A stretch of 32,000 nucleotides of DNA, from the NCBI RefSeq assembly GCF_025567415.1, contig NZ_JAOQJV010000004.1:41903-73902 (forward strand). The letters are read 5' to 3'. The notes below the pieces were generated by a model. That model was not told where the DNA came from and made no database searches. It saw only the letters and a list, made by a program, of their open reading frames with translations. This DNA is from Dorea ammoniilytica. Its GTDB lineage: Bacteria > Bacillota > Clostridia > Lachnospirales > Lachnospiraceae. This document shows, piece by piece, positions 1,608 to 19,772 of the stretch. The position numbers and the translations under genes were made by a program. Position 1 is the first letter of the stretch. Each line of letters starts with the position of its first letter.

Positions 1608-1621
1608 TTGAATCCCCTCCT

Positions 1622-2365: not shown

Positions 2366-2377
2366 AATCTTATCCTC

Positions 2378-2869
2378 CTATCCCTCAAACGTTCTTTTAA
2401 TCTTATCGAAATCCATTCTTGGTTCTTCCGGTATGATATGAATATAAATTTCAGTTCCTTTTTGATGCATTTCCTCTAACAGATCCATATCCGCCTGATT
2501 CAATGAAACCGCACGCAATATCGTCACTCGCCCTGGTTCGTTTGGTATGCCCCCAATCTGCAAGCTAGAAATCGGAACGCCCTTCTGTGCTGTCCGCATA
2601 CATGATTCAACATCTTTAAACAACAACATCACCGTTCCCGTTCCAAATTCATCTTTTTCCCATTCCTCTGCTGCCTTATCAACTGATATAATCTCAACAG
2701 ACACATTTTTTGGTGCGGCAGCCGCATAGATCATGACCATAAAATCATCTTTTGATAATTCGTCATCAATGATAATAATCCGATTCGCTTTCGCAATCTT
2801 CACCCATTTTGTGATAACCTGCCCATGAATCAAACGACTATCCAGGCGTACTAATGAAATTTTTGCCAT
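2378..2869 (-). CDS. PTS mannose-family EIIB component (copy 2, adjacent to IIC/IID)
   Basis: N-terminal LVRLDSRLIHGQV motif (phospho-His of IIB-Man). 163 aa, with an RBS. Confidence 0.85.
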   Translation of the reverse strand: MAKISLVRLDSRLIHGQVITKWVKIAKANRIIIIDDELSKDDFMVMIYAAAAPKNVSVEIISVDKAAEEWEKDEFGTGTVMLLFKDVESCMRTAQKGVPISSLQIGGIPNEPGRVTILRAVSLNQADMDLLEEMHQKGTEIYIHIIPEEPRMDFDKIKRTFEG

Positions 2870-2881
2870 ACTAATCCTCTC

Positions 2882-3265
2882 CTATCTTTTTAAATTTAAT
2901 ATTTTTTCTTTTACTGATATTTCTATCTTGTCAACAAGTTCTCCACCGTAATACGTATTTCTCAGATTATCCGCACATATCAGCATTTCCATATTCAAAC
3001 CACATACTGCATAGACCGTTCCATACTTCTTTGCATAGACACCGGCTATATTCGACGGTGTTCCCCCTGCAAGATCAGTCAATAGCAAAACATTTTCTGC
3101 ATTTTCTATCGCTGCATCTATGCGCTGCATATAATTAGAAATGGAATCCTCTGGCATCAGGCTCAGTGTTTCACAGCATTCTATTTTTCCTACAACCATC
3201 TGAGCAGACTGTAATAATTCTTCTCCCCAGCCTCCATGTGTTAACAGTATTATTTTTGTTTTCAT
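2882..3265 (-). CDS. PTS mannose-family EIIA component (copy 2)
   Basis: MKTKIILLTHGGWGEEL.. has the THG phospho-His motif of IIA-Man. 127 aa. Confidence 0.8.
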   Translation of the reverse strand: MKTKIILLTHGGWGEELLQSAQMVVGKIECCETLSLMPEDSISNYMQRIDAAIENAENVLLLTDLAGGTPSNIAGVYAKKYGTVYAVCGLNMEMLICADNLRNTYYGGELVDKIEISVKEKILNLKR

Positions 3266-3284
3266 ACAATTTTCCTCTTTGCTG

Positions 3285-3749
3285 TTATATAAGATCTCTG
3301 ATATACACTACTTCATTATCTGGAACCATCTGTATATAAAGAACTGTCCCATCCTCCGTCAAACTTTTTATAATTTCTTCTTCATGCCCAGACACATATA
3401 TATTTTCATATAATTCCTTTTTGCCAGGAGCAAATGGAAGCCTGCAGATATTTACTGTTTTTATTTCAGTTCCCTTCTCATATATTCTCCACAATGTATC
3501 CAATGTTCTTAACAGTACAAGTACATTTGCATCCGCTATCATAACAGCTTCAGCACCTTCATCTGTACTATAAAAAAACACTTCTACAGACTCAGGAACC
3601 GTCATTGTTAGTACACCTTGTAAAATAGGATCCGTTGCCACCTGATCATCAATGATATATAATTTACTGCATGACGCATGTTCGAGCCATTTAAAAAGAA
3701 TCTGTCCATGAACCAAACGTTCATCAACCCGAAAAAATATTTCATTCAT
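3285..3749 (-). CDS. PTS mannose-family EIIB component (copy 1, promoter-proximal)
   Basis: FRVDERLVHGQI motif. The ATG at 3749 is preceded by GAGGTG with 8-nt spacing. The ORF-track start at 3752 is a TTG. Confidence 0.8.
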   Translation of the reverse strand: MNEIFFRVDERLVHGQILFKWLEHASCSKLYIIDDQVATDPILQGVLTMTVPESVEVFFYSTDEGAEAVMIADANVLVLLRTLDTLWRIYEKGTEIKTVNICRLPFAPGKKELYENIYVSGHEEEIIKSLTEDGTVLYIQMVPDNEVVYIRDLI

Positions 3750-3767
3750 CAATTAATCACCTCTTCA

Positions 3768-4163
3768 TCAGCTGATCAGTTCTTTCATATTTACGATTCC
3801 ATTTTTTCCTCCTTCCATTGCTACTTCCGGAAGACTGTTTAGTGAAATTTCTGTCCTATTCTCCAATACATTAATCAACATTGGTAGATTCAGTCCTGTC
3901 ACGCATTGAATATTTTCTTCCCTCAAGCAGGATGCAGTCACATTGCAAGGACTTCCGCCGAGCAGATCGACAAGAACGATCACACCGTCACCATCATCTA
4001 ATTCTTTAGATTTCTCTCTTACCTTGCGCAATAGTTCCTGCACATCATCGCCATGATTTAATGTCAGTGCTTCCAGCTTATCGTGATGACCGAAAATCAA
4101 CTCCATACTTTTAATAATGGACTCGCTGAAATTTCCGTGAGTCACAACCAACACACCAATCAT
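3768..4163 (-). CDS. PTS mannose-family EIIA component (copy 1, promoter-proximal)
   Basis: MIGVLVVTHGNFSES.. IIA-Man motif. GAGGTG RBS. This is the first gene after the sigma-54 promoter. Confidence 0.8.
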   Translation of the reverse strand: MIGVLVVTHGNFSESIIKSMELIFGHHDKLEALTLNHGDDVQELLRKVREKSKELDDGDGVIVLVDLLGGSPCNVTASCLREENIQCVTGLNLPMLINVLENRTEISLNSLPEVAMEGGKNGIVNMKELIS

Positions 4164-4205
4164 TACCCATCACCTCATTTCTTTTTTCTTTTATTTATTT
4201 ATAGA

Positions 4206-4220
4206 GCAAATTGCGTGCCA
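4206..4220 (-). promoter_or_regulatory. sigma-54 (-24/-12) promoter of the PTS operon
   Basis: The minus strand reads TGGCAC-GCAAT-TTGC, an exact GG-N10-GC consensus. It ends 43 nt upstream of the first IIA start codon (ATG at 4163). A LevR-type activator and rpoN are encoded nearby. Confidence 0.85.
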
Positions 4221-4259
4221 GCTTTGTGTGTTGTTTTTCTGCATAAAGTGTGTTTAGAC

Positions 4260-4307
4260 AAAAAAGTATCGATCTATAACGCATTACCTGCGTCATAAAC
4301 CGATACT
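4260..4307 (-). terminator. rho-independent terminator downstream of the LevR-like gene
   Basis: The minus strand reads AGTATCGGTTTATGACGCA-ggtaa-TGCGTTATAGATCGATACT followed by TTTTT. I paired a 19-bp stem by hand (16 Watson-Crick plus 3 G.U pairs). Confidence 0.8.
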
Positions 4308-4313
4308 TTCATC

Positions 4314-7079
4314 TTATATATTTTCCATCATTTCTATCAAATACACAATTTCTGAATCCGGAATATCAATATGCAACATATGTTCAATATCTCCCAAACT
4401 CTGCTTGATTCTATTAAACAGTGTCTCATACTTCTTTTTTATCTCTTCCGTCTGTTTATGCTGTATAATTTCTCCCTGCATAATACGTTCCAGCATACAT
4501 GCCGTATGAATTACATAACGAAATTTAATATCCTTTCTGTTTTTCCCCTGAGTCGTCAGTTCCTCAAACGATTTCAGTAGCAATGGAATAATCTTTGCCG
4601 GATTAAGAAAAGCCAGTATCCCCGAAAGCGTCTCAGCTAATATTTCTGTCTTTACATCGCTCTCCTGTTCATTCGAAATATTCAAATCCGATGCATTCGA
4701 TAATATATGTTCCAGCCGACGCATTCCCTCCCCCGCAATCAATTCATCGACAGAAATATATGGTACACCGTCCAATTTCAAATCTACTGTTCCAACTACA
4801 GCATCAATCCTTTTCCGCTGCAGTCCCTCTTTCCCATTCTGCACGTCTACGGCCTGCCTGAAATCCATGCACTGTATATGCACCATATCTTTCAATGCTC
4901 CTGGGAGCATTTCCATGATAATATCTTTGATTTTTACAGCTGTTCCCTGTCCGGTAAAACATGTCGTTATAATCCTGTGCTGGATACACCCCATATTCTT
5001 CTCATCTTGATTCTTTATCAGGAACTGAAATGTCTGTTTCAAATCTGCATAGATTTCATCCAAGGACATATCTTGCATCAATGACTTTCTTAATGCTTCC
5101 AGCACAATCGCGGTCGAAGCAAGTGTTATGGTTCTCACTTTAATTCCGGTTTTCTGTTCAATCAATTCTCCCATCATGGTCAGTGAACCCATATCAGTTA
5201 GCAGCAGGACTCCCTTGCCCTCATCGATTTCCTTCACCATTGCCACAGCTTTTTCAAACATAATTTCAGTAGACATATCCAACGGCATATCAAGTGCTTT
5301 ACAATGATCCGTATTCATCAGCTGATTAACAACTTCTGACATACTGCTCGCAGTTGAATTACCATGAGCCATAACCATTATGCCTGTATACTGTTTTATC
5401 TGTTCATTCGAAACACATAAAAACATTGTCAGGTATACCAATTCTCGTTCTGGTATCTGAACATCGAGTTCCTCTTCCAGTAGCCTTTTAATTGTCTTTG
5501 CTACTCGAAATTCTTTCGGATGATTTAATGCAATGTCACTGCCAACCTCTTCCCTTATCGGAATTCCGTTTTCAATCCGTTCGAGCATGGCATTTACGTG
5601 CATTGTCATTCCAATCTTAGCCTGTTCAGATAATTTTCTTTCCAACCGCACTTCTGCAAATTGAATCACTTCTTCAACTGCATAATACACATTGGCATTT
5701 ATAATTTTCAACAGATTCTTTCTGCCATCCTCCTGATCTGTCACATGATATTTTTCCATCAGCTGTTCCATATATCGGTCCAGATCTTCCTGTAATATCC
5801 CTGTAATCTGCCCCTTTGTTCTTCCCTGCTGTTTAAAAGTCTGATATTTCTCCGAAATAATATCATATAGCGACTGTTTTTGATTGCCGATTGTTTCTTC
5901 ACCTTCAAAAAAATGATAATCATCCGAATATCTCAAAAAATCAATCAGATCATTCTTTTGATTTTGATGTTCTAAACGGCCTTTTTGGATATACTCAGGC
6001 AGTACCGGCAATTCCACCGTAACATACTGCAGTTTATCTACCTTATACTGTAAAAAGGCTCTTGCACAGACCAGCTGAATATCTGCTTTCAGCTGTCCGA
6101 TATTGCCTGGACAATAATATAACAGAAGTGCTATGAGTGCCTCTTTATAAACTCTGATCGGCACTCCCACCTTTTTTTGTTCATTTACAAAGAACATCTC
6201 TATCAGCTGCAGACGTTCCACTATAGGGCGTTCATTCAATGCTGGCAAATGGATTACAACAGGCATACGCCGCAAAAATGTCTTTAAAAGAACTGTATTA
6301 ATATTTTCTGTCGTAGCACCGATAATCAGTACATCTGCCTCTCTGAATTTATCTGTTTCACCCAGACGCCGATAGATTCCTTTGTCCATCAATAAAAATA
6401 GCATCTCCTGACCTTCCGGAGGCAGGCGGTGAATTTCATCCAACAGCAAAATTCCTCCATCCGCCTGCTCAACAAGTCCAATTTTATCCTTTTCTGCACC
6501 AGTATAGGCTCCTTTTTTACATCCAAACAACTGTGACAGGATCAGCTGAGGATTTTGTGCATATTCTGCACAATTAAAAACAATCAGTTTTTCCTTTTCA
6601 CGAATTATCCCCGATTGTGCCGCATACTCATACATCTTTTCTGCAAATGTTGTTTTTCCCGTCCCAGTCGGTCCAGCCAAAAGTGTATGTAAGCCTCTTG
6701 GTGGATACAAAATTGCTGATTTTCCCTGTTCGATTTGAGATTTCAGCGATCCGTTCCCGCCTATCAGATTGCTAAATGCGGTTTTACCGTCTTTTTCCTC
6801 TGCTTTTTTTACTAACTCTTCACAGACTGATGCTTCCATAAACAGTACCGGTCTACTTTCTGATTTTACTACAAGACCTTCCCGCACCAATTCATTCAAA
6901 TCTCTGCTCACGTTACTTCGTTCTAATCCTAACGCCTCTGCAATCGTACCAGAATCTATTCCGGTTTTCGTTTCCTGTTCATCTACCATTTGTCGAACAC
7001 ATTGCAATATTTTTTCTTTTCTATTCAAGTCTTTAACCCTCTCTTCTAGTAAATCAATGCACCAACCAGGCGTTTCCAT
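4314..7079 (-). CDS. sigma-54-dependent transcriptional activator, LevR type (HTH - AAA+ - PRD - EIIA(Man)-like - PRD)
   Basis: Walker A GPTGTGKTT and a GAYTGA loop (GAFTGA-type sigma-54 contact motif). PRD-like segments are present. An internal IIA-Man-like block MVMAHGNSTASS and a C-terminal PRD follow. The ATG at 7079 lacks an SD, so the TTG at 7028 (GAGAGGG 8 nt upstream, giving LNRKEKIL..) is an alternative start. Confidence 0.85.
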   Translation of the reverse strand: METPGWCIDLLEERVKDLNRKEKILQCVRQMVDEQETKTGIDSGTIAEALGLERSNVSRDLNELVREGLVVKSESRPVLFMEASVCEELVKKAEEKDGKTAFSNLIGGNGSLKSQIEQGKSAILYPPRGLHTLLAGPTGTGKTTFAEKMYEYAAQSGIIREKEKLIVFNCAEYAQNPQLILSQLFGCKKGAYTGAEKDKIGLVEQADGGILLLDEIHRLPPEGQEMLFLLMDKGIYRRLGETDKFREADVLIIGATTENINTVLLKTFLRRMPVVIHLPALNERPIVERLQLIEMFFVNEQKKVGVPIRVYKEALIALLLYYCPGNIGQLKADIQLVCARAFLQYKVDKLQYVTVELPVLPEYIQKGRLEHQNQKNDLIDFLRYSDDYHFFEGEETIGNQKQSLYDIISEKYQTFKQQGRTKGQITGILQEDLDRYMEQLMEKYHVTDQEDGRKNLLKIINANVYYAVEEVIQFAEVRLERKLSEQAKIGMTMHVNAMLERIENGIPIREEVGSDIALNHPKEFRVAKTIKRLLEEELDVQIPERELVYLTMFLCVSNEQIKQYTGIMVMAHGNSTASSMSEVVNQLMNTDHCKALDMPLDMSTEIMFEKAVAMVKEIDEGKGVLLLTDMGSLTMMGELIEQKTGIKVRTITLASTAIVLEALRKSLMQDMSLDEIYADLKQTFQFLIKNQDEKNMGCIQHRIITTCFTGQGTAVKIKDIIMEMLPGALKDMVHIQCMDFRQAVDVQNGKEGLQRKRIDAVVGTVDLKLDGVPYISVDELIAGEGMRRLEHILSNASDLNISNEQESDVKTEILAETLSGILAFLNPAKIIPLLLKSFEELTTQGKNRKDIKFRYVIHTACMLERIMQGEIIQHKQTEEIKKKYETLFNRIKQSLGDIEHMLHIDIPDSEIVYLIEMMENI

Positions 7080-7094
7080 CTATCGTTTAAAAGA

Positions 7095-7123
7095 ATTCTA
7101 TCATTTTCTCTACTAGGAGTCCA
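7095..7123 (-). promoter_or_regulatory. candidate sigma-70 promoter for the LevR-like gene
   Basis: The minus strand reads TGGACT-17 nt-TAGAAT with an extended -10 TG (TGaTAGAAT). It lies in the 94-nt gap between the ADH gene and the activator. Confidence 0.4.
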
Positions 7124-7173
7124 GAATACAGAGCTATCTTATTCCGATATCATTCCATCTGCCAGCATTTGTT

Positions 7174-8187
7174 CTAGTTAAATGTAATAATTCCTTTTAT
7201 GTATTCTTTTGGATTTGTTGTAAGCAGTTGGAAGCCTTCATTAATCTCTGTGACTGGAATTCTGTGTGTAATCAGTTTATCTGTTGGGAAAATATCTTTT
7301 ACATACGCATCCACTGCCTTTTTTAGCACATCCATATAGTTTTCACAGTACCAAGGATGAACTACATGAATAATCGGAGAACGATACATCATATTATAAG
7401 CCATTTCCTCTGTAAATATTTCATTTTTCGTATACATAGACGGTGCAAGGATCTTTCCTCTTCCTGCAATTCTAATAATCTGCAATGCTGATGCCAGGCC
7501 TTTTAAGCTTCCTGTTATTTCAATAACTACATCAAATCCTTTTCCCTTTGTAATGTTCATCATGCTTGACTGTAAATCTTCCTGCAAAGGGCATATAGTT
7601 TCAGAAGCTCCGTATTTTTCTGCCAGTTTCAGACGATCTGAATCAAAATCAATTGCTGTTAGACTTCCCAATCTATCATTTTTCAATCCAGCTATTGCCA
7701 ATAGTCCCATAAATCCACATCCAATCACAGCTACATGATCACCAAAACGTGGATTCGCTGCCTGAACAATATTTGCAACACACATCATTGGTTCTCCAAG
7801 ACAGGCATCAATAGGTTTCTCCGTATCTGGAATTTTAACAAGACGTTTATTTTCATTCAGCATCATATGACTTGTAAAGCATTCAGAAGATACTCCTGTC
7901 ACATAATCTCCCGTCTTAAATTTCGTAACACTTCTCCCTATTTCCTGTACTACAGCTACAGGCTCATGTCCCAGTCCCATTGGATATTGGATATTTTTCA
8001 CCATGGCTTCAAAACCCAGTGGACTTTTGCCCATTGCACTTGTTCCCAGATATGCAGGAACATCTGAATGACATAAACCTACACTAATCATTTTCAATAA
8101 TACTTCATCTTCTTTTAGTTCCGGCATCTGCTCTTCATATAATTCAAAATGACCAGCCCTCGTCAGTTTTGCTTTTATCCGTTTCAT
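7174..8187 (-). CDS. Zn-dependent medium-chain dehydrogenase/reductase (polyol or polyol-phosphate dehydrogenase-like)
   Basis: GLCHSD and GHEP zinc-ligand motifs and a GCGFMG Rossmann motif. There is a 4-nt overlap with the upstream transketolase C gene. Confidence 0.75.
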   Translation of the reverse strand: MKRIKAKLTRAGHFELYEEQMPELKEDEVLLKMISVGLCHSDVPAYLGTSAMGKSPLGFEAMVKNIQYPMGLGHEPVAVVQEIGRSVTKFKTGDYVTGVSSECFTSHMMLNENKRLVKIPDTEKPIDACLGEPMMCVANIVQAANPRFGDHVAVIGCGFMGLLAIAGLKNDRLGSLTAIDFDSDRLKLAEKYGASETICPLQEDLQSSMMNITKGKGFDVVIEITGSLKGLASALQIIRIAGRGKILAPSMYTKNEIFTEEMAYNMMYRSPIIHVVHPWYCENYMDVLKKAVDAYVKDIFPTDKLITHRIPVTEINEGFQLLTTNPKEYIKGIITFN

Positions 8188-9152
8188 TTTTTGCTTTTCC
8201 TTTCTATTGCTTTCTCTGCTTTTTTCACAATATCTTCTGCGGTCAGATGGAATCTCTTCTTTAAATACTCCATATCTCCAACCTCTCCAAATTCATCTTC
8301 TATGCCAATCCGTTCTACCGGTACCGGCAGGTTTTCTGCAAGCACCTCGCATACCGCACTTCCAAGACCGTTATACATAGAATGGTTTTCTGCTGTAACA
8401 ACTGCACCTGTTTCTTCTGCACATTTCAGGACAAGTTCCTTATCTAATGGCTTAATAGTAAACATATCTACCACTCTGGCAGAAATACCTTTTTCTGCTA
8501 AAACATCTGCTGCCTTCAAGGACTCTGCCGTCATAATTCCACTCGCTATAATTGTCACATCTGTACCTTCTCTGAGTTCTTTCCCTTTTCCAATCTCAAA
8601 CTCTTCCTGACTGTCATACAACCTGACAACCGCTTTTCTGGCACATCTTATATAATACATTCCTTTTAAATCCACCAACTGATGAAGCAGTTTTTCTAAC
8701 ATCACTTCATCCGTTGGCTCTATAATTGTCAGTTCTGGAAAAGCCCGCAATGCGGCTACATCTTCAAATGGCATATGTGTTCCTCCGTTGTAAGCCGCCA
8801 TAATTCCCGGATCTGAGCCAACTAATTTTACGTTCGCATGAGAATAGCATCCAGAAATAAAAATCTGATCATTTGCTCTTCTAGATATAAACGGTGCAAA
8901 CGAATGTACAAACGGGATTTTCCCTGCTGCAGACATACCACATGCTACGCCAACCATATTTGCTTCCTGAATTCCGCAATTAACAAGTTGTCCCGGATAT
9001 TGATCGATTTCATCCATTTTACTACCCATAATACAACCACCGAGATCTGCTTCTAATTCAACTACATTCTTATTTTCCCGCATTATTTTTGTAATCGTAT
9101 CTGAATATACTCCGGCCATTTTTCTTTCAGATACTGTATATGTTTTTTTCAT
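8184..9152 (-). CDS. transketolase, C-terminal (pyrimidine-binding) subunit of a split enzyme
   Basis: 322 aa with typical split-TK C-subunit sequence (..GIQEANMVGVACGMSAAGKIPF..). It is adjacent to the N-terminal subunit gene. Confidence 0.85.
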   Translation of the reverse strand: MKKTYTVSERKMAGVYSDTITKIMRENKNVVELEADLGGCIMGSKMDEIDQYPGQLVNCGIQEANMVGVACGMSAAGKIPFVHSFAPFISRRANDQIFISGCYSHANVKLVGSDPGIMAAYNGGTHMPFEDVAALRAFPELTIIEPTDEVMLEKLLHQLVDLKGMYYIRCARKAVVRLYDSQEEFEIGKGKELREGTDVTIIASGIMTAESLKAADVLAEKGISARVVDMFTIKPLDKELVLKCAEETGAVVTAENHSMYNGLGSAVCEVLAENLPVPVERIGIEDEFGEVGDMEYLKKRFHLTAEDIVKKAEKAIERKSKK

Positions 9153-9166
9153 TTTCTATAATCCTC

Positions 9167-9991
9167 CTATCGTTTCAATTTATTGACTGCATCTTCCGCC
9201 TGCTCTGCTGACACGTTAATATGATGATTTTTTAATATATTTTCCGCAAAGGAACATCCTTTTCCCTTTATTGTGTTCATCACAATCACATGAGGTCTTT
9301 CATCATTATTTCTCGCAGTTGTAATTGCAGTATTTAATTCATTAATGTTATGTCCATCTACTTCCTGAACATCCCAATGAAAACTACGGAATTTTTCAGC
9401 AAAGCTATCCATGTTGCATATTTTAGACGTCATATTGTCCAACTGCTGCTTGTTGTCATCAACAAACAGAATCAGATTACCAAGTTTTTGCTGTGCAGCA
9501 AACATAACAGCTTCCCAGTTCTGCCCTTCCTGGCTTTCTCCATCACCAATAATACAGAAAATTGTATTTTCTTTTTGTTCAATCTTCTTAGCGAACGCGA
9601 TTCCGGCAGCCACCGATAGTCCCTGTCCCAGTGAACCGGTTGTCACATCAATTCCCGGTGTCTTTGAATGATCGCAGTGGCTCGGCAATCTTGTTCCCGG
9701 CTGATTTAGGGTATCCAGCCAATCCATTGGGAAAAAGCCTTTCAACGCCAACGCTGCATACACTGCCGGGCCCGCATGACCTTTCGAGCAGATCAACCAA
9801 TCCCGTTCTTCCCATTCTGGATTATCTGCATCATATTTCATCTGTTCTCCGTACAACACACTAAGAAGATCACATATACTCATCGCGCCTCCCATATGTC
9901 CGAAACCTCTTGTTTTCATCTGACGGATTGTCTGAATCCGTATATCCGTGGCAAATTTTTCTAATTCTTCTACTCTTTTCTCTGTTAACAT
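9167..9991 (-). CDS. transketolase, N-terminal (TPP-binding) subunit of a split enzyme
   Basis: HMGGAMS and GDGESQEG TPP motifs. The ATG at 9991 is 8 nt after GGAG. The ORF-track start at 10000 is a GTG that overlaps the RBS. Confidence 0.85.
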   Translation of the reverse strand: MLTEKRVEELEKFATDIRIQTIRQMKTRGFGHMGGAMSICDLLSVLYGEQMKYDADNPEWEERDWLICSKGHAGPAVYAALALKGFFPMDWLDTLNQPGTRLPSHCDHSKTPGIDVTTGSLGQGLSVAAGIAFAKKIEQKENTIFCIIGDGESQEGQNWEAVMFAAQQKLGNLILFVDDNKQQLDNMTSKICNMDSFAEKFRSFHWDVQEVDGHNINELNTAITTARNNDERPHVIVMNTIKGKGCSFAENILKNHHINVSAEQAEDAVNKLKR

Positions 9992-10032
9992 TTTCCACAC
10001 TCCTTTGTTTTATTTTTTATTATTTTAATAAA

Positions 10033-10047
10033 GCAAAAAACATGCCA
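10033..10047 (-). promoter_or_regulatory. sigma-54 (-24/-12) promoter of the transketolase/ADH operon
   Basis: The minus strand reads TGGCAT-GTTTT-TTGC. It ends 42 nt upstream of the transketolase N start codon. Confidence 0.8.
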
Positions 10048-10084
10048 TTTTAGTGTGTTCTTTTCAAAATTTAACACACAAATT

Positions 10085-10099
10085 TGGCACGTTTTTTGC
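10085..10099 (+). promoter_or_regulatory. sigma-54 (-24/-12) promoter immediately upstream of rpoN
   Basis: The plus strand reads TGGCAC-GTTTT-TTGC, an exact consensus. It lies 13 nt before the AGGAGG RBS of rpoN and mirrors the minus-strand promoter 38 bp away. Confidence 0.7.
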
Positions 10100-10129
10100 T
10101 ATTATAAATTATAGGAGGTGATATTCATT

Positions 10130-11434
10130 ATGGAACAAGGTTTTATTTTTTCCCAAAAGCAACAACTGATATTCAGTCAAAAACAGATTCAATCTTTAAA
10201 ACTGCTTGCCATGGACAACTATGAATTAAGTACTTTTTTGCAGGAAGAATATAATGAAAACCCTTTATTGGATGTAAAAAACTCAGATTCTGCAGTTAGT
10301 CGCCCCTTTTCAAAGGCATCAGTAACATCGGATGAGACATTCCAGCCAGAGATACGCGCTCTTGATAATAATTACCTCGTTGATTTTATCATGAACCAGA
10401 TCCATTATTCCGAGTTCAGCACATTAGAATTAAAAATCATGAAGTTGATGATCCTTTTAATGGATGACAAGGGATTCTTTCCATATACGCCAGAGGATCT
10501 GATGGAGTTGTATCACATTCCTGCTGAATCCTCTGCAAAATGTCTTGGCATTTTACAAACTTTGGAACCTTCTGGAATATTCCAGCCGGATATTGCCCAT
10601 TACCTCCTGTATCAGCTTCACATCAACGGCATTGAAAATCAATCTTATACCCGCTTGATTTTAAATCATCTCGATGATATTGCATCTGGAAATCTGAGAA
10701 CTATTGCAGATGACCTCGCCATCTCTGTTCCTGAAGTCCGGCAGATGATCCGGCTGGTTAAACTTTTACCGCCTCCCCCGCTAACAGGCATTGGAGACTC
10801 CACAAACGAATATATCATTCCTGATATAATTGTTGAAAAATCTGAAAACAACTGGAATATCTCTCTGAATGATAACTGGATAGAAAATTATAGTTTAAAT
10901 GATTACTATATCCACATGATGCAGATATCTACAGACGCGCTTTTAAAAGATTACTTTGAGAAAAAATACAAACGGGTACATTTTATTTTCCAACAGATTG
11001 AACAGCGACGGAACACAATTCTTGCGATTTCAAATTCCGTTGTACAACGTCAGGAAGCTTTTTTCAACGGAACTGCACCCTTACATCCCATGACAATGTC
11101 TGATGTTGCAGACGAATTAAATCTTTCTGTCTCAACCATTAGCCGCGGCATAAAAAATAAATACATCCAATATCCAAATGGTATCGTTCCTCTCAAATCA
11201 TTGTTCTCTACAGGATTATCACAGACAGGCAATGAAGAAATCAGTTGTTCACAGGTTACTCTTCTATTACATCAACTGATTCAACATGAAAATAAAGCGA
11301 AACCATTTAGCGATCAGGCTCTTACTAACGCCCTCATTCAAAAAGGTATACATATATCTAGAAGAACCGTAACTAAGTATCGGACATTAGCAAACATCCC
11401 TAATGCTTCCGAAAGAAAAGCAACACTGATTTAA
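10130..11434 (+). CDS. rpoN: RNA polymerase sigma-54 factor
   Basis: Q/L-rich region I (FSQKQQLIFSQKQIQSLKLL..NENPLLD), a C-terminal HTH (LSVSTISRGIKNKY) and the RpoN box SRRTVTKYR. The ATG at 10130 follows AGGAGG. The ORF-track start at 10118 is a GTG inside the RBS. Confidence 0.9.
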   Translation: MEQGFIFSQKQQLIFSQKQIQSLKLLAMDNYELSTFLQEEYNENPLLDVKNSDSAVSRPFSKASVTSDETFQPEIRALDNNYLVDFIMNQIHYSEFSTLELKIMKLMILLMDDKGFFPYTPEDLMELYHIPAESSAKCLGILQTLEPSGIFQPDIAHYLLYQLHINGIENQSYTRLILNHLDDIASGNLRTIADDLAISVPEVRQMIRLVKLLPPPPLTGIGDSTNEYIIPDIIVEKSENNWNISLNDNWIENYSLNDYYIHMMQISTDALLKDYFEKKYKRVHFIFQQIEQRRNTILAISNSVVQRQEAFFNGTAPLHPMTMSDVADELNLSVSTISRGIKNKYIQYPNGIVPLKSLFSTGLSQTGNEEISCSQVTLLLHQLIQHENKAKPFSDQALTNALIQKGIHISRRTVTKYRTLANIPNASERKATLI

Positions 11435-11448
11435 CAGTGTTGCTTTTC
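11415..11448. terminator. bidirectional rho-independent terminator between convergent rpoN and lysC
   Basis: Perfect 14-bp stem GAAAAGCAACACTG / CAGTGTTGCTTTTC with a 6-nt loop that contains the rpoN TAA. A/T runs lie on both sides. Confidence 0.8.
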
Positions 11449-11449
11449 T

Positions 11450-12661
11450 TTATTCCAGCTGTCCGGCAAATCCGTCGTGTACAGCATTCAATGCTTTCTC
11501 TACATCCTTTTTATCAACCAGTACTGTAATACGGATCTCGGATGTAGCAATCATATTGATGTTAATTCTCGCATTATAGAGAGTCTCGAACATCTTAGCA
11601 GCCACACCAGGATTACTCATCATACCGGCACCGACTACAGAAATCTTAGCCACATCTCTATTGCTTGTGATTTCTTTAATCGTCAGTGCTTCTTTGTGAT
11701 CCTCCAGAATATGGATTGCATCATCCAGATCATCCTCGGATACAGTAAATGAAATATCCTTAGTTCCATCTCGTCCCACTGACTGCAGGATGATATCTAC
11801 GTTAATATTATTTTTTGCAAGTGTATTGAAAATGCGAAATGCAGTTCCCGGCTGATCGTCTACTCCGATCACTGAGATTCTTGCGGTATTCGTATCGGCT
11901 GCAACGCCTGTGATTAACATTTTTTCCATTTTGACTTTCTCCTTGATCACTGTACCTTCTGAACGGTTCAGGCTGGATCTTACCACCAGCTCTACGCCGT
12001 ATTTTTTAGCCATTTCCACCGATCTGTTATGTAAGACTTTCGCTCCAAGAGAGGCTAACTCCAGCATCTCATCATAGGTCACTTCATCCAGTTTCATCGC
12101 ATTCTTTACGATTCTCGGATCAGCTGTGTAGACACCGTCGACATCCGTAAATATCTCACACCTGTCAGCATGTAACGCCGCTGCCAGTGCCACTGCTGTG
12201 GTATCTGATCCACCTCGGCCAAGTGTCGTCAGATCATCATATTTATTAACGCCCTGAAAACCGGTCACGATTACAATCTTTCGTGAATCCAGCTCGTGGG
12301 TAATACGATCTGTATCAATCCTCTTGAATCTTGCATTGCCATACCGTTCTGTAGAATGCATCTGCACCTGAAACGCATTCAGCGATACTGCAGGCACATC
12401 CAGGCTCTGCATAGCCATAGCCATCAGGGATACGGATACCTGTTCTCCTGTTGTCAGGAGCATATCCAACTCTCTTTTCTTTGGATTAGCATGAATGCTA
12501 TGTGCCATAGCGATCAGATCATCGGTCGTATCTCCCATTGCTGACAATACTACTACTACATCATGACCGGCTCTGTAATCTTCGATGCATCTCTCTGCCA
12601 CGCGAAATATTCTTGTTTTATTAGCCACAGAACTTCCGCCAAACTTTTTTACAATTAACAT
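11450..12661 (-). CDS. lysC: aspartate kinase
   Basis: MLIVKKFGGSSV.. N-terminus, kinase core and two C-terminal ACT-like regions. 403 aa. Confidence 0.9.
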   Translation of the reverse strand: MLIVKKFGGSSVANKTRIFRVAERCIEDYRAGHDVVVVLSAMGDTTDDLIAMAHSIHANPKKRELDMLLTTGEQVSVSLMAMAMQSLDVPAVSLNAFQVQMHSTERYGNARFKRIDTDRITHELDSRKIVIVTGFQGVNKYDDLTTLGRGGSDTTAVALAAALHADRCEIFTDVDGVYTADPRIVKNAMKLDEVTYDEMLELASLGAKVLHNRSVEMAKKYGVELVVRSSLNRSEGTVIKEKVKMEKMLITGVAADTNTARISVIGVDDQPGTAFRIFNTLAKNNINVDIILQSVGRDGTKDISFTVSEDDLDDAIHILEDHKEALTIKEITSNRDVAKISVVGAGMMSNPGVAAKMFETLYNARININMIATSEIRITVLVDKKDVEKALNAVHDGFAGQLE

Positions 12662-12670
12662 AGTTCCTCC

Positions 12671-13873
12671 TTAGCATTCCAGAAGATGATCAATCAATCG
12701 ATAACCATCCTTCCAAATGCATGTGCTCTTTGCTGCTTCTTTTTCATTATATGTATGAATTCCGTCTATTGCCTTTCTACTGTCGTAGATCATATACGGA
12801 ACCGGCTCAGATGTATGTGTTCTCACACAGATCGGCGTCGGATGATCCGGAAGTATCATTAGTCTGTAATCTTCTCCCGACCGGTCCATTGCTTCCGTAA
12901 TCCTTGCCACAACACGACCGTCCACATTCTCAATTGCTGTAATCTTATCCGTCACAGAACCCATGTGTCCCATCTCATCCGGTGCTTCTACATGTACATA
13001 AGCAAAATCATAACCATCCTCTAACAATGCGTGGATTGCCGCATCTGCTTTGCCCTCATAATTGGTATGCAGTCCACCATTGGCACCTTCTACGATAATG
13101 CGATCCATATCTGCACCGACTGCAATTCCTTTCAACAGATCCACCGCCGAGATCATCACACCCTTTTTGCCGGTCTTTTCTTCAAATGATGCAAGTGCCG
13201 GTCTGGTACCTGCACCCCAGAACCATGCAGAATTAGCCGGGTTCAGTCCCTGCTTCTTACGCTCTACATTGATCGGATGATCTTTCAATATCTCATAGCT
13301 CTTCTTCATCATGTCAAGGAGTACCAGATCCTTCGGCAGGTATTCTCCAACGGTCTTTGTCAGGATATCATGCGGCGCCGTAAGTTCTAACACTTTACCA
13401 TGTTTCCAGATCAGAAGATGACGGTAACTGGTACCTGCGTAGAATTCATAACCTTCTCTTTTCAGGCCTTCTTTTAATGCCTCTAACAAAACGGTAGAAT
13501 CTTCGGTACTGATCTCACTGGAACTATGATCGATGATCTTCTGATCTTCGTAAGCACCACCATCTTCCGTCAGTGTCACAAGATTACAGCGGAACGACAC
13601 ATCATCTGCTGCCATATCTACACCGATACTGAGTGCTTCTAACGGTGATCTTCCGGTATAATAAATCTTCGGATCATATCCCATTACTGACAGATTGGCG
13701 GTATCACTTCCCGGTGCCATTCCTTCCGGCACCATAGATGCCAGTCCGATCTCCGCTTTCTCTGCAAGGCGGTCAAAATTCGGTGTATCAGCAGCTTCCA
13801 GCGTTGTCTTACCGCCCAATTTCTCCAGCGGTCTTCCTGCCATTCCGTCACTTAACACGATGATATATTTCAT
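12671..13873 (-). CDS. ApgM-type cofactor-independent phosphoglycerate-mutase homologue; likely the 'proposed homoserine kinase' clade
   Basis: MKYIIVLSDGMAGRPL..TPNFDRLA..GSDTANLSVMGYDP.. metalloenzyme-superfamily signature. It is wedged 3 nt after hom and 9 nt before lysC. Confidence 0.7.
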   Translation of the reverse strand: MKYIIVLSDGMAGRPLEKLGGKTTLEAADTPNFDRLAEKAEIGLASMVPEGMAPGSDTANLSVMGYDPKIYYTGRSPLEALSIGVDMAADDVSFRCNLVTLTEDGGAYEDQKIIDHSSSEISTEDSTVLLEALKEGLKREGYEFYAGTSYRHLLIWKHGKVLELTAPHDILTKTVGEYLPKDLVLLDMMKKSYEILKDHPINVERKKQGLNPANSAWFWGAGTRPALASFEEKTGKKGVMISAVDLLKGIAVGADMDRIIVEGANGGLHTNYEGKADAAIHALLEDGYDFAYVHVEAPDEMGHMGSVTDKITAIENVDGRVVARITEAMDRSGEDYRLMILPDHPTPICVRTHTSEPVPYMIYDSRKAIDGIHTYNEKEAAKSTCIWKDGYRLIDHLLEC

Positions 13874-13876
13874 AAA

Positions 13877-15097
13877 CTAGTCCTCCACGCGAATCATGCT
13901 GATAATATCTTCTGTATAATCAGACACTTTTTTCTCATATAAGCCCTCTTTCATGGATTCTGTCACAAATCCGAACTCTCCGGCAATCTCCGGAACTTCA
14001 ACATACTGTAGCATTCCGAAAGATGCTTCCAGTTTCTGCTGAAGTTCTTCTTTCTTACCTTTGATACGTACAAAGAAACGATGCTCAACTTCTTCCTGTT
14101 TCTGGATTTGAAGTTTCTCCTCGCTCCATCCATAGCCAAGATTATAACCGATATTCTTAACTGCTTCGACCACATCACCAACTACAGCACTGGCCGTTGG
14201 AAGCTTGCCTGCGCCACTTCCGTAGAACATCGCATCGCCCAGCATATTGCCATGTACAAATACTGAATTAAAGACTCCGTTAACACTGAACAGTGGATGA
14301 TCCTGACTCAGAAGACACGGAGATACCATGGCACTAAGCGTCTCACCATGTCTCTTGCATGTTGCAAGAAGCTTCACCGTTCGTCCCATTACCTTTGCAT
14401 ACTGCATATCTTCTACTGTTACTTTCGTAATACCTTCACAGTAAAGGTCTTCAAAATCTACCTGCTTACCGGAAATAATAGACGCCAGGATTGCAATCTT
14501 ACGGCAAGCGTCATAGCCCTCCACATCTGCCTCCGGATTACGCTCTGCAAATCCATTGTCCTGTGCCTCTTTTAACACATCATCGTATCCGGCGCCTTCA
14601 TAAAACATCTTAGTCATCATATAGTTGGTTGTTCCATTCAGAATTCCCACGATCTCTTCGATCACGTCTCCAGTCAGAGATTCATACAAGCTTCTGAGGA
14701 TTGGAATGCCTCCACCCACACTTGCTTCATAGAAGAAATTCACATTCTGCTCTTTTGCAACACGAATCAACTCTGCGCCATGCTTTGCCACCAATGCCTT
14801 ATTCGATGTAGCAACATTCTTTCCTGCCAGAAGACTTCTCTTTACAAATGTATAAGCCGGTTCAATACCACCCATCACTTCTACAACGATCTGAACTTCT
14901 TCGTCATTTACGATCTCTTCAAAATCATGAGTGATTACCTCCTGCACCGGATCTCCCGGAAAATCTCTCAGATCCAGTACATATTTTACTTCCAGTTCTT
15001 CTCCTGCTCTCTGCGCGATCACTTCACGATTGGTACGGAGTACCTCATAGACTCCGGATCCTACTGTTCCATATCCAAGCACTGCTATCTTTGCCAT
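13877..15097 (-). CDS. hom: homoserine dehydrogenase
   Basis: MAKIAVLGYGTVGSGV Rossmann N-terminus, a catalytic region and a C-terminal ACT-like domain. Its RBS lies inside the prfB 3' end. Confidence 0.9.
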   Translation of the reverse strand: MAKIAVLGYGTVGSGVYEVLRTNREVIAQRAGEELEVKYVLDLRDFPGDPVQEVITHDFEEIVNDEEVQIVVEVMGGIEPAYTFVKRSLLAGKNVATSNKALVAKHGAELIRVAKEQNVNFFYEASVGGGIPILRSLYESLTGDVIEEIVGILNGTTNYMMTKMFYEGAGYDDVLKEAQDNGFAERNPEADVEGYDACRKIAILASIISGKQVDFEDLYCEGITKVTVEDMQYAKVMGRTVKLLATCKRHGETLSAMVSPCLLSQDHPLFSVNGVFNSVFVHGNMLGDAMFYGSGAGKLPTASAVVGDVVEAVKNIGYNLGYGWSEEKLQIQKQEEVEHRFFVRIKGKKEELQQKLEASFGMLQYVEVPEIAGEFGFVTESMKEGLYEKKVSDYTEDIISMIRVED

Positions 15098-15102
15098 ATC
15101 TT

Positions 15103-16213
15103 CTACCCTTTCCTCTGTTCCTGTAAAAAAGCATTAATAAATGGTTCCAATGCTCCGTCCAGCACTGCGCCGACGTTGCTGCTCTCCGCACCTGTCCGGT
15201 GATCCTTCACCAACGTATACGGCTGCATAACATATGAACGGATCTGATTGCCAAATCCGATCTCTTTGATCTCACCACGGATATCTGACACCTTATCCGC
15301 CTGCTCCTGCTCTTTCAGGAGCTTTAACTTCGCTTTCAGCATCTGCATTGCCTTATCACGGTTATGATGCTGTGAACGTTCATTCTGGCACTGTACCACA
15401 ATTCCTGTCGGCAGATGCGTGATACGGATTGCCGATGATGTCTTATTGACATGCTGACCACCCGCTCCACTGGCTCGATAGGTATCGATCTTCAGTTCAT
15501 CATCACTGAGTTCAATATCATCAATATTATCCTCAATATCCGGAATCACATCACAGGATGCAAATGATGTCTGTCTCTTTCCTGCAGAATTAAATGGCGA
15601 AATACGCACCAGGCGGTGTACGCCTTTTTCAGACTTAAAATATCCATAGGCATTCTCACCACTGACCTCAAACGTAACCGTCTTAATCCCCGCCACATCT
15701 CCTTCCAGAAAGTCCAGTACCTTCACACCGAATCCTTTGCGCTCCGCAAATCTGCTGTACATGCGGTACAGCATGCTCGCCCAGTCACAGGACTCCGTTC
15801 CGCCAGCTCCTGCATGAAGTGTTACAATTGCATTATACTTATCATATTCGCCCGACAGAAGCGTCTGGATGCGCAGGCTCTCATAACCCTCTTCAAATGC
15901 ATTCAGCTCTTCTTCTATCTCAGGAAGCACCGATTCGTCTTCTTCCTCATACGCCATCTCAATCAACAGTCCAATATCTTCATAGCTCTGTTCCAGATGT
16001 TCCACTGTCTCTACCTGATCTTTTAGATCTTTGAGATCCTTCATAATCTTCTGGCTTTCTTCCGGTTCATCCCAGAATCCCGGTTCTTCCATCTTACGTT
16101 CTAATTCTTCAATCCTCTGTTTCTTTCCAGGGATGTCAAAGTGAATCCCTCATTTCAGCAAGTGGGCTCTCGTAAGCACTGAGCCGTCCTTTATACTGGT
16201 CCAGTTCTACCAC
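15103..16213 (-). CDS. prfB: peptide chain release factor 2, requiring a programmed +1 frameshift
   Basis: The main ORF 15103..16092 carries the GGQ motif (SGAGGQHVNKT). A short upstream frame starts at GTG 16213 (RBS AAGAGGTG): VVELDQYKGRLSAYESPLAEMRDSL-TGA. Shifting +1 at CTT TGA C joins ..DIPGKKQRIEELERKMEEPGFWD. Confidence 0.9.
16135..16141 (-). other. prfB +1 frameshift site CTT-TGA-C with an upstream SD-like GAGGGA
   Basis: The minus strand reads ATGAGGGATTCA CTT TGA C. This is the canonical RF2 autoregulatory slippery/stop context. Confidence 0.85.
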
Positions 16214-16257
16214 ACTATCACCTCTTTCTATCTTAAATGCATGAGATACTGGGACAT

Positions 16258-18822
16258 TTATTTACGCCCGCAGCACTGTTTATACTTCTTACCGCTTCCA
16301 CATGGACATGGATCATTTGGATAGATCTTCTTATTTTCACGCTTCTTCGGTGCACGTACGGCACTTTCATCCTTATTCGTACCGGTCACCTTGGCTACTT
16401 CTTCGCGTTCTGCTTTCTGCTCGATCTTCACACGGTATAATGCACGGATCGTATCAGCAGAAATTGCTCTTGTCATCTCATCAAACATCTCATATCCGAT
16501 CATCTTGTACTCAACCTTCGGATCTCTCTGACCATATGCCTGCAATCCAATACCCTGACGCAGCTGATCCATGTCATCGATGTGATCCATCCATTTATTA
16601 TCGATAACCTTCAAAAGAACCACTCGCTCCAGTTCACGGATATGCTCCGGTTCCGGGAACTCTGCTTCTTTCTGCTCATACAGCTTCACCGCACGCTCTT
16701 TCAGCATATGCTTCAGCTTCTTAGCATTCATATCCTTAACTTCTTCCGGTGCAACCGGCTTCATCGGGATTACATTGCAGAGGCTTACATTAAAATTCAC
16801 CAGATCCCAGTCTTCCGGATCTGCATCCGCAGGAATATCACTGTCTACCAGATTCTCCACATATTCTGTGATCATATGGATGATAGAATCACGCATACTC
16901 TCGCCGTCCAGTACCTTCTTCCTCTCAGAGTAGATGATCTCTCTCTGCTCATTCATTACCTGATCATATTCCAACAGGTTCTTACGAATACCAAAGTTGT
17001 TATTCTCAATCTTCTCCTGTGCCTTCTCGATTGCACTGGATAACATCTTATGCTCAATCTGTTCGCCATCTTCTACACCAAGTGCATTAAACACGCTCAT
17101 CAGACGTTCAGAACCAAACAAACGCATCAGATCATCTTCCAGAGAAATGTAGAATCTGGATTCACCCGGATCTCCCTGTCGTCCGGCACGTCCACGGAGC
17201 TGATTGTCAATACGTCTGGACTCATGACGCTCTGTACCGATGATCTTAAGACCGCCGGCTTTTCTTGCCGCATCGTCCAGCTTAATATCCGTACCACGAC
17301 CGGCCATATTAGTAGCAATCGTTACTGCTCCATGCTGACCTGCCTGCGCTACAATCTCAGCTTCCATCTCATGAAACTTGGCATTCAATACATTATGCTG
17401 TACACCTCTTCGCTTCAGCATACCACTCAGAAGTTCCGATACCTCGATCGTGATCGTACCAACCAGCACCGGCTGTCCTTTGGCATGTGCTTCTTCTACT
17501 GCATCGCAGACTGCTCTGTATTTTTCTTTCTGCGTCTTATATACGGCATCATCCAGATCCTGACGGATGACCGGCTTATTGGTCGGGATTTCTACAACGT
17601 CCATTCCGTAGATCTCACGGAACTCCTTCTCCTCTGTCAGCGCGGTACCTGTCATACCACTCTTCTTCTCGTATTTATTAAACAGATTCTGGAATGTAAT
17701 GGTCGCCAGCGTCTTACTCTCACGTTTCACCTTTACATGTTCCTTCGCCTCAATCGCCTGATGCAGACCATCAGAATAACGGCGTCCCGGCATGATACGT
17801 CCGGTAAATTCATCTACGATCAGTACTTCATCATCCTTAACCACATAATCCTGGTCACGGAACATCAGGTTATGCGCACGGAGTGCCAGGATAATGTTAT
17901 GCTGGATTTCCAGGTTCTCCGGATCAGCCAGATTGTCCAGATGGAAGAACTTCTCTACCTTCTTCACACCATCTTCTGTCAGGTTGATGTTCTTTTCCTT
18001 CTCATCTACGATAAAGTCTCCGGTTTCCTCAATCTCTTCTCCCATGATGGCGTTGATCTTAGAGAACTCTCCGCTGGCTTCACCTTTTTCCATCTGTCTT
18101 GCAAGAATGTCACATGCTTCATAAAGCTTCGTTGACTTGCCGCTCTGTCCGGAAATGATCAGTGGTGTACGTGCTTCATCGATCAATACAGAGTCGACCT
18201 CATCGATAACAGCAAACTTCATACCGCGCTGTACCAGCTGTTCCTTGTAAATGACCATGTTATCTCTCAGATAATCAAATCCGAGTTCGTTATTTGTTAC
18301 GTAAGTAATGTCGCAGTTATAAGCAGCACGACGTTCTTCTTTGTCCATACTGTTCAGTACTACGCCGACTGTCAGTCCCAGAAATTCATGTACCTGTCCC
18401 ATCCACTCTGAGTCACGCTTTGCCAGATAGTCATTGACCGTAACGATATGTACACCTTCTCCTGTCAATGCATTCAGATATGCCGGAAGGGTAGATACCA
18501 GTGTCTTACCTTCACCAGTCTTCATCTCAGCGATACGTCCCTGATGAAGAACGACACCGCCGACTAACTGTACACGGAAATGACGCATGCCAAGTACTCT
18601 GACAGACGCCTCTCTCACCGTCGCGTACGCCTCTGGAAGCAGGTCATCCAAAGACTCTCCTTCTGCATAACGTTCTTTGTATTCACGGGTTTTGTCCCGA
18701 AGCTCTGCATCCGACAGCTTCTGCATCTCCGGCTCCAGTGCTTCTATGCGATCCACGATAGGATAAATTCGCTTTAATTCATTTTCACTATGTGTTCCAA
18801 ACAACTTTTGTAATAAGCCCAT
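16258..18822 (-). CDS. secA: preprotein translocase ATPase SecA
   Basis: 854 aa with DEAD-like motor motifs ([28 protein letters not shown]) and a C-terminal zinc-binding tail [14 protein letters not shown]. Confidence 0.95.
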
Positions 18823-19738: not shown

Positions 19739-19772
19739 TCTCTTTCTCCCAATCTTATTCCTTATATAAAGA

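Follow-up and report, generated by a model that had tools for sequence, protein, structure and literature searches.

Sigma-54 is generally regarded as a sigma factor that is produced constitutively, output being set only by the activators. Does this also hold where the sigma-54 gene, rpoN, lies inside a sugar locus and appears to be preceded by a sigma-54 promoter of its own? The question is raised by a 32,000-nt stretch of Dorea ammoniilytica DNA (contig NZ_JAOQJV010000004.1, positions 41,903 to 73,902; the window, in the following, is this whole stretch). An earlier sequence-only reading of it noticed two sigma-54-type promoters, back to back, in the 138-nt gap between the ATG of the transketolase gene tktN (9991, minus strand) and that of rpoN (10130, plus strand). 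The comparisons described here indicate that sigma-54 very probably controls its own production. More specifically, the gap may be a compact bidirectional control region in which the rpoN promoter, P_rpoN, is composite, being served at a basal level by the housekeeping factor sigma-A, damped by the sigma-54 holoenzyme and boosted by a sugar-activated activator; the probability of this fuller reading is put at about one half.

Two -24/-12 elements facing outward

The element of P_rpoN, TGGCACGTTTTTTGC, lies at 10085..10099 on the plus strand and that of P_tkt, the promoter of the tktN-tktC-adh genes, TGGCATGTTTTTTGC, at 10033..10047 on the minus strand, both being exact matches to the -24/-12 consensus. 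The positions and strands first given for the two GG-N10-GC elements agree with the sequence read, as does the placing of the plus-strand element 13 nt before the rpoN ribosome-binding site, the Shine-Dalgarno sequence AGGAGG being found at 10113-10118 on the plus strand. The bare GG-N10-GC pattern is uninformative in the window (173 matches versus 135 expected). The stricter TGGCA-N6-TTGC occurs six times in the 32-kb window, versus 0.34 occurrences expected over the 64 kb of searched strand, and none of 100 shuffles reaches six; with two of the six matches within one 138-nt gap, the claim that the pair is unlikely by chance is borne out. Three of the strict matches are intergenic and directed towards a gene, namely P_tkt, P_rpoN and P_pts, the promoter of a phosphotransferase system (PTS)-aldolase operon, with its element TGGCACGCAATTTGC at 4206..4220 on the minus strand. 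The other three are intragenic and on the minus strand, at 5530-5544 (levR), 7482-7496 (adh) and 24259-24273 (bipA region); internal sigma-54 promoters at 5530-5544 and 7482-7496 were considered and rejected, as these matches are conserved in no relative. Counted from the GC of the -12 box, the start codon of tktN is 42 nt away, that of the PTS operon 43 nt and that of rpoN 31 nt (42-60 nt in relatives).

The syntenic set used to follow these elements consists of eight loci, which pairwise RpoN identity divides into about five lineages (the window; L064/L068/L074; L073; L069/L072; L071); the lineages are partly related, so that counts over eight loci overstate independence. RpoN of the syntenic relatives is 46-51% identical to that of the window, and the lineages are at most 65% identical to one another. 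They stem from a group that the protein database yielded at 47-52% identity, the gene order levR-adh-tktC-tktN, divergent from rpoN, being kept in all contigs of the group that were fetched. Absence of the plus-strand element from relatives with the same gene order had been named beforehand as an observation that would speak against the promoter pair. Both -24/-12 elements are present in 8/8 such loci, with the consensus TGGCA(C/T)GAT(T/A)(T/A)TTGCT for the plus element and TGGCA(C/T)-N5-TTTGCT for the minus element, and the element of P_pts is kept in all five relatives with enough flank. The information content is ~2 bits over TGGCA and TTTGCT versus 0.1-0.5 in the flanks. The two TGGCA boxes are separated by a spacer of 31-85 nt, in which only the ACACA ends are alike between lineages. 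The plus-strand element is thus under selection, since it is kept in all syntenic loci while the surrounding DNA has diverged. Apart from one exception, strict TGGCA-N6-TTGC is restricted, throughout the whole modules of the relatives, to P_pts, P_tkt and P_rpoN. An explanation by concerted evolution of the arms was rejected, as near-identical arms are found in the window only and the plus and minus elements of the relatives each follow the consensus of their own class. Correct GG/GC spacing, a gene-directed position, the presence of an intact rpoN and a cognate activator, and conservation amid diverged flanks are therefore all found together, and we infer that these are two genuine sites for the sigma-54 holoenzyme, facing outward.

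That the gap holds nothing but two consensus-like strings in AT-rich intergenic DNA might be argued from the three further exact matches in the window, which are intragenic (the two in the module being not conserved), so that chance matches do occur; set against an expectation of 0.34 per 64 kb of strand, two matches in 138 nt, both kept across lineages, leave this explanation with a negligible probability, and the conservation data already refute it.

Some variation was noted alongside. The species-representative and metagenome collections also yielded contigs of the same species (99%); in all three same-species contigs one A is missing from the A/T run at window ~10027 and the -24/-12 boxes are invariant, and in one of them (L028:~4945, aligned to window 10074) AGCACAC replaces AACACAC beside P_rpoN. 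The database start of tktN in L072 (6068-7009) is placed too far upstream and takes in the tkt promoter, the real ATG being ~50 nt past the -12 box. The rpoN leaders of the relatives carry a further ACACAT/ATGTGT element ~22-31 nt after the -12 GC (TATGACACAT in L068, L073 and L074; ATGTGT in L069, L071 and L072), which the rpoN of the window has lost together with most of its leader.

The sequence-only reading had also described a 27-nt palindrome near 10066. The inverted repeat does exist and exceeds that length, with 39-nt arms (10021-10059 and 10073-10111) that are 79% complementary, 13 nt apart and centred on 10066, but it is no functional unit in itself: the spacing varies from 31 to 85 nt in relatives, which makes the palindrome a by-product of two similar promoters set back to back. 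It lies upstream of both predicted transcription starts and is, hence, not transcribed. A terminator or structured RNA in the gap was rejected, no terminator being found in 9800-10300 and no Rfam family in the window. It could still be proposed that the plus element has no promoter function and is the mirror arm of the palindrome, serving as an activator dyad for P_tkt or surviving as the remnant of a terminator, given that the arms pair over 39 nt and that, in an Erysipelotrichaceae-type organism, the identical TGGCACGTTTTTTGC forms the 3' arm and T-run of a covarying terminator hairpin. However, in the relatives as much as 85 nt of unrelated DNA separates the arms, which yet keep the exact GG-N10-GC spacing and TTGCT, and the flanking genes diverge, leaving nothing to terminate, quite apart from the negative terminator scan of the gap and the position of the repeat outside any transcript. 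A mirror arm is thus a very improbable explanation, already disfavoured by the conservation data.

Presence of the element at other rpoN loci

A second clade comes from a gut species cluster that is very abundant (2221 member sequences). Its RpoN is 42% identical to that of the window (43-45% by the search tool), and its rpoN follows a PTS EIIA gene in the same orientation, at a distance of 22 nt (L075:7480-9305, L076:7480-9308). The promoter of this EIIA-rpoN unit reads TTGGCA(T/C)-N5-TTGCTTT, with ACACTAA upstream, and the unit is divergent from a LevR-aldolase-isomerase-ADH-PTS operon different from that of the window, the catabolic promoter of which is GACACTAAgtTGGCATGCTTTTTGT. The promoter of this divergent catabolic operon has GT for GC at -12 (TGGCATGCTTTTTGT; L075:4555-4580). 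A conserved sigma-54 promoter is, therefore, recognizable directly upstream of rpoN in the syntenic loci (clade 1) and of EIIA-rpoN in clade 2.

Distant rpoN loci (34-40% identity), taken from 25 genomes that represent species and from 38 metagenome contigs, served as negative background. The scan of their upstream DNA, over 600 nt at first and finally over 2.5 kb, gave no relevant plus-strand element, the apparent ones in L004 and L007 having been rejected as intragenic. No such sigma-54 element lies upstream of rpoN at ~50 other Lachnospiraceae loci, and the rpoN of Anaerostipes is without a -24/-12 element even though its product is 53% identical to RpoN of clade 2. Given these absences, the sigma-54 element tracks the context of the module and not phylogeny: on the loci compared, a predicted sigma-54 promoter for rpoN is a recurrent feature wherever rpoN is embedded in a sugar locus of this kind and is absent elsewhere.

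One further contig (L063), in which the plus element follows a different activator gene, was rejected as a chimeric assembly. It is made of three parts: an Erysipelotrichaceae-type LevR gene contributes its 3' end and the Dorea rpoN its 5' end, and unrelated sequence follows after rpoN residue 53. At the left junction stands the 21-mer ATTTGGCACGTTTTTTGCTAT, and two unrelated organisms have exactly this 21-mer in their sigma-54 promoters. The true context of its activator (L077, L078) is an Erysipelotrichaceae-type PTS locus with ATTTGGCACGTTTTTTGCTAT (L077:1060-1115; L078:1110-1170). Sigma-54 promoter k-mers common to several species can, therefore, yield chimeric metagenome contigs. In that PTS locus, the sigma-54 promoter behind the LevR-type gene coincides with the 3' arm and T-run of a terminator-like hairpin (L077:1070-1112, L078:1118-1160), the arms of which show compensatory changes (ACGTGCC/GGCACGT versus ACATGC/GCATGT), and the same sequence may act both as terminator and as sigma-54 promoter.

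A proposed composite promoter for rpoN

How would a cell make the sigma-54 that a sigma-54-dependent rpoN needs? A candidate bootstrap source overlaps P_rpoN itself, in the form of TGCTATTAT (10097..10105, plus strand), a TGnTATAAT-like extended -10 for the housekeeping sigma factor that has its TG in common with the TTGC of the -12 box (10096-10099). The sequence-only reading had found no -35/-10 pair for rpoN, and it is true that only weak 9-of-12 pairs are present; a sigma-70-type signal nevertheless exists in the form of the extended -10. The classical pairs were rejected in its favour; for one of them, TTGGCA-17-AATTAT, the predicted start would fall inside the Shine-Dalgarno sequence. 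The hexamer that follows TTGC matches TATAAT at 4-6 of six positions in all eight rpoN promoters (at least five in 6/8, where the chance of such a match is ~3.7% per site), versus 1-4 of six in 13 tkt and PTS promoters. It is TATAAT at four loci, TATTAT at two (the window included), TCTTAT at one and TAATAT at one; A at position 2 is kept in 7/8 rpoN promoters versus 0/8 tkt promoters, and T at position 6 in 8/8 rpoN promoters. TGnTAWWAT also occurs in the short gaps before dapA, a penicillin-binding protein gene and hprK in the window, and the rpoN genes of Anaerostipes and of a Lacticaseibacillus paracasei plasmid have motifs of the extended -10 type, TGATATAAT (with no -24/-12) and TGTTAAAAT, respectively. 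As far as the sequence goes, the arrangement at P_rpoN is also one in which a -24/-12 element with C at -12 overlaps a sigma-70-type -10, as at promoters that sigma-54 occludes. From the GC-to-start distance of 13 bp reported for Bacillus thuringiensis celA, the rpoN transcript is predicted to begin at ~10111-10113 for both promoter types, at the Shine-Dalgarno sequence or 1-2 nt ahead of it.

The second feature of P_rpoN is the element AACACACAAA (10073..10082, plus strand), 5 nt upstream of its TGGCA, which is a probable site for the LevR-type activator of the module. A candidate activator site, AACACACTAA (plus strand TTAGTGTGTT), is found 5 nt upstream of the TGGCA of P_tkt (10050..10059, minus strand), and AACACACAAA recurs 5 nt upstream of that of P_pts (4223..4232, minus strand). 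Across the loci, rACACAC(A/T)AA ends 5 nt upstream of TGGCA (6 nt in the P_tkt of two relatives) in 21/21 promoters (eight rpoN, eight tkt and five PTS). The elements at 10050-10059 and 10073-10082 together make up the inner inverted repeat of the gap, and in the divergent pair each TGGCA has the element of its partner 26-80 nt upstream. The activators of clade 1 have near-identical winged helix-turn-helix (wHTH) recognition regions. In the L. paracasei plasmid, five direct repeats with an AGTGT core, the reverse complement of ACACT, lie upstream of the PTS promoter as an array of upstream activating sequences (UAS). On the strength of these repeats of a homologous activator and of the near-identical wHTH regions, the ACACAC elements are probably binding sites of the LevR-type activator, and it is proposed from their recurring design that P_rpoN, P_tkt and P_pts form one regulon.

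The mechanism suggested by these elements is the following. Two outward holoenzyme sites would share a central pair of activator sites, P_tkt driving the catabolic genes and P_rpoN the sigma-54 gene. When the substrate is lacking, sigma-A polymerase would use the extended -10 for basal rpoN transcription and so bootstrap sigma-54, and the closed complex of the sigma-54 holoenzyme on the same DNA would limit this basal transcription, a negative feedback. When the substrate is present, the PTS-controlled activator would remodel the closed complex, and sigma-54 would rise together with the transporter and the enzymes, a positive feedback in which the activator gene, levR, would probably take part as well. 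The sequence-only reading had presented positive feedback and autorepression as alternatives; given that the -12 box is overlapped by an extended -10 which only the rpoN class of promoters has, the choice it posed is probably not an either/or and both modes would apply.

Several observations weigh against the composite promoter. In the window, the rpoN leader from the predicted start to the Shine-Dalgarno sequence would measure no more than 2 nt, which is unusually short. TTGCTAT follows the -12 position also in the Erysipelotrichaceae-type PTS promoter TTGCTATATA (L077) and in ordinary SigL promoters of Clostridioides difficile (PMC7438776), so that the sigma-54 consensus itself accounts for part of the '-10' match and only the second half of the hexamer discriminates. 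L071 and L072 match TATAAT at only 4/6 positions, and clade 2 is without TGnTATAAT at the -12 position. As to the ACACAC elements, their position at ~-32 to -38 is atypical, Clostridial UAS sites being typically found 100-250 bp upstream (PMC6615313), and they could be something other than activator sites. A position weight matrix (PWM) scan gave no consistent copies of ACACAC at canonical enhancer distances (80-250 bp) from P_pts, and remote UAS copies were, therefore, rejected.

Some of these points would fit a simpler scheme in which P_rpoN is an ordinary activator-dependent promoter acting by positive autoregulation alone. The hexamer would then be fortuitous, and read-through, leaky initiation or a second rpoN would supply the basal sigma-54. 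Rhizobial prxS-rpoN2 works so, EIIA-rpoN of clade 2 has a standard sigma-54 promoter with no TGnTATAAT over its -12, TTGCTAT is common at normal SigL promoters and the ACACAC of P_rpoN is shared with both catabolic promoters. This scheme is considered unlikely in view of the retention of A2 and T6 in rpoN promoters (7/8 and 8/8, with A in 0/8 tkt promoters), of the at least 5/6 matches in 6/8 where ~3.7% would be expected, and of the need of a self-dependent sigma factor for a bootstrap source, which the extended -10 would supply.

The opposite simplification, pure autorepression, would have the holoenzyme at 10085-10099 never activated and only occluding the sigma-A promoter, so that sigma-54 would be held at a set level. 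A full-consensus site with C at -12 does overlap the extended -10, promoters occluded by sigma-54 are on record (PMC4551910), and PMC3538637 cites negative autoregulation of rpoN in Rhizobium leguminosarum. Two features speak against autorepression alone, namely the ACACAC of activator type that P_rpoN has at the same distance as the catabolic promoters, 31-85 nt from the element of its partner, and the sigma-54 promoter of clade 2, which is the only recognizable promoter before EIIA-rpoN; autorepression alone is judged improbable. The composite promoter, combining both modes, is the preferred reading.

The module and its known counterparts

The genes around the gap, as called earlier (a transketolase/ADH operon, a LevR-type activator and rpoN), are borne out by Pfam and NCBIfam domain matches. 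They form a module in which, on the minus strand and from right to left, the split transketolase is followed by the Zn-dehydrogenase, the activator, the mannose-family PTS and the aldolase, with rpoN divergent. The rpoN gene (10130..11434, plus strand; 434 aa) encodes all three sigma-54 domains and an RpoN box (variant SRRTVTKYR) and scores 343 bits with TIGR02395, versus a cutoff of 277, indicating an intact sigma-54 gene. The identities of the genes for the transketolase N-terminal (tktN, 9167..9991) and C-terminal subunits (tktC, 8184..9152), for a Zn-dependent dehydrogenase of polyol or sugar-phosphate type (adh, 7174..8187) and for a mannose-family PTS (EIIA-EIIB-EIIA-EIIB-EIIC-EIID, 765-4163) were confirmed, all on the minus strand, as is the class II aldolase gene at the downstream end of the PTS operon (2-724), which is cut at the window edge. 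The activator (4314..7079, minus strand; 921 aa) has the domain order wHTH, AAA+ with GAYTGA, PRD, EIIA-man and PRD by Pfam; its Sigma54_activat domain, Walker A and GAYTGA at residue 190 are all intact, and its best NCBIfam model, DagR, gives 574 bits, under the cutoff of 1400, so that it is not an equivalog.

The expression of the activator gene bears on the loop. A terminator was looked for in the adh-levR gap and none was found, and the gap holds a weak sigma-A-like motif, TGGACT-17-(TG)aTAGAAT (7095..7123, minus strand), a consensus match and a possible candidate for a basal levR promoter. With no terminator and only this weak motif of its own, levR is probably reached by read-through from P_tkt (tktN-tktC-adh), which is why the activator would probably join the loop. 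Between the levR stop codon and P_pts, a terminator-like hairpin with 20 pairs and a T-run (4263..4309, minus strand) would insulate the PTS operon against read-through.

In its composition the module differs from its surroundings, the GC content being 37-40% over window 1-11450 versus 44-50% in the adjacent housekeeping genes (11500-20000). A perfect 15-bp hairpin, AGAAAAGCAACACTG / CAGTGTTGCTTTTCT, extends over the rpoN stop codon (11415..11449), between rpoN and the convergent aspartate kinase gene, and marks the right edge of the low-GC module, where the GC content shifts; its T-runs are short, for which reason the scan for terminators passed it over. SecA and aspartate kinase, encoded in the flank, match D. 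ammoniilytica proteins exactly, and RpoN of another Dorea (L011) is 34% identical to that of the window. Beyond rpoN, the right flank varies among the relatives whose contigs were fetched, with genes for a response regulator/kinase, an acylphosphatase, RecR or an amidohydrolase. Since levR-adh-tktC-tktN/rpoN is kept while the genes past rpoN vary, the module appears to move as a unit, and it looks like a portable sigma-54 cassette, a horizontally acquired island.

A more far-reaching proposal, advanced here tentatively and with considerable doubt, is that of a mobile self-contained regulon with a private, inducible and self-amplifying sigma-54, following a logic like that of extracytoplasmic function (ECF) sigma factors. 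Its activator would work from single sites at ~-35, abutting the -24 box, with no looping enhancer, and both the sigma gene and the catabolic operon would be fired from one core of 31-85 bp. Homeostasis would be built in, the -12 box serving also as the TG of the extended -10.

Self-regulation of sigma-54 is already known in other settings. In Rhizobium etli and on the symbiosis island of Mesorhizobium loti, the sigma-54 gene of prxS-rpoN2 is transcribed from a NifA/sigma-54 promoter (PMC3538637). As proposed for Dorea, an activator-dependent sigma-54 promoter serves the sigma-54 gene of an acquired element that carries its regulon, giving an inducible positive feedback. The rhizobial system, however, is found in Alphaproteobacteria, has rpoN2 as the second gene behind prxS and is bootstrapped by the chromosomal rpoN1 or by a weak internal promoter; moreover, the NifA UAS is remote, and there is neither a back-to-back divergent promoter nor an overlapping housekeeping -10. 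In Escherichia coli, sigma-54 represses overlapping sigma-70 promoters when C is at -12 (PMC4551910), and this case and the negative autoregulation cited for R. leguminosarum resemble P_rpoN in that a -24/-12 element having C at -12 and a -10 of sigma-70 type lie on the same DNA, where a closed complex can repress. Unlike the E. coli occlusion sites, that of Dorea is a full-consensus one with flanking elements of activator type, and is probably productive too.

Closer in phylogeny, an in-silico survey of 2025 found that, in Bacilli, Clostridia and Erysipelotrichia, the set of genes preceded by sigma-54 promoters is enriched in rpoN (COG1508), which was read as autoregulation, and it cites Geobacter and Dokdonia (PMC12316311). 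The survey concerns the same phenomenon in the same bacterial class, but does not describe the architecture (divergent pairing, composite -10, link to a LevR/PTS module) or conservation at the level of the site. The departure of this locus from constitutive rpoN expression is, hence, less new than it seemed, being preceded by prxS-rpoN2 (PMC3538637) and by the survey (PMC12316311).

The LevR/levanase system of Bacillus subtilis and the Clostridial LevR regulons have in common with the Dorea module the activator family, control by the PTS, a mannose-family target and the promoter TTGGCA(T/C)-N5-TTGCT (PMC6615313, PMC7438776). They differ in that sigL is unlinked and not a reported target, UAS sites are 100-250 bp upstream, and no transketolase/ADH operon or divergent pair is reported; in the regulon reconstruction for Clostridiales there is no mention of sigL among the targets, of transketolase operons or of divergent promoters (PMC6615313). 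A portable counterpart is a cassette of L. paracasei p1CACC566 (NZ_CP048004.1), in which an activator gene is divergent from rpoN, a mannose-family PTS, DgaE and KDGP aldolase; it lies on a mobilizable 65-kb plasmid (L080, NZ_CP048004.1 about 37020-45900). Like the Dorea module, it combines a portable sigma-54 gene with a LevR/DgaR-type activator, divergent from rpoN, and with a PTS, and it has the AGTGT/ACACT core; its activator is homologous over the full length (34% identity, E = 3e-148), and the recognition helices of the two are related. It differs in that its rpoN is without a -24/-12 element and has the sigma-A-like TGTTAAAAT only, the sigma-54 promoter following rpoN, and in that the five activator repeats lie ~45-135 nt upstream of TGGCA and do not abut it.

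Self-regulated sigma-54 being already known, what appears to be new with respect to the literature compared is the back-to-back layout, the composite -12/-10, the activator-type element close to -24 and the linkage of rpoN, in several lineages, to a mobile LevR/PTS module. The comparative data support the existence of a gut Firmicute lineage with its sigma-54 gene wired into its own regulon and travelling as a compact cassette. If the proposed mechanism is true, the locus would offer a minimal and portable model for the bootstrap and self-limitation of sigma-54, for two holoenzymes sharing one promoter and for the question of whether activators of LevR type are able to work from sites next to the -24 box, and it would be a natural, orthogonal and sugar-inducible expression module for engineering gut Clostridia.

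Elsewhere in the window, the gene at 25121-25891 (plus strand) encodes a ribosome hibernation factor, the Pfam name of which, 'Sigma 54 modulation protein', is historical and implies no link to the rpoN locus. An open reading frame at 19810-20118, for which no Pfam match was found, contains at 19845-19971 (minus strand) a short in-frame tandem repeat, GGTG(C/T)CGACGATGC, recurring every 33 nt (19892, 19925, 19958).

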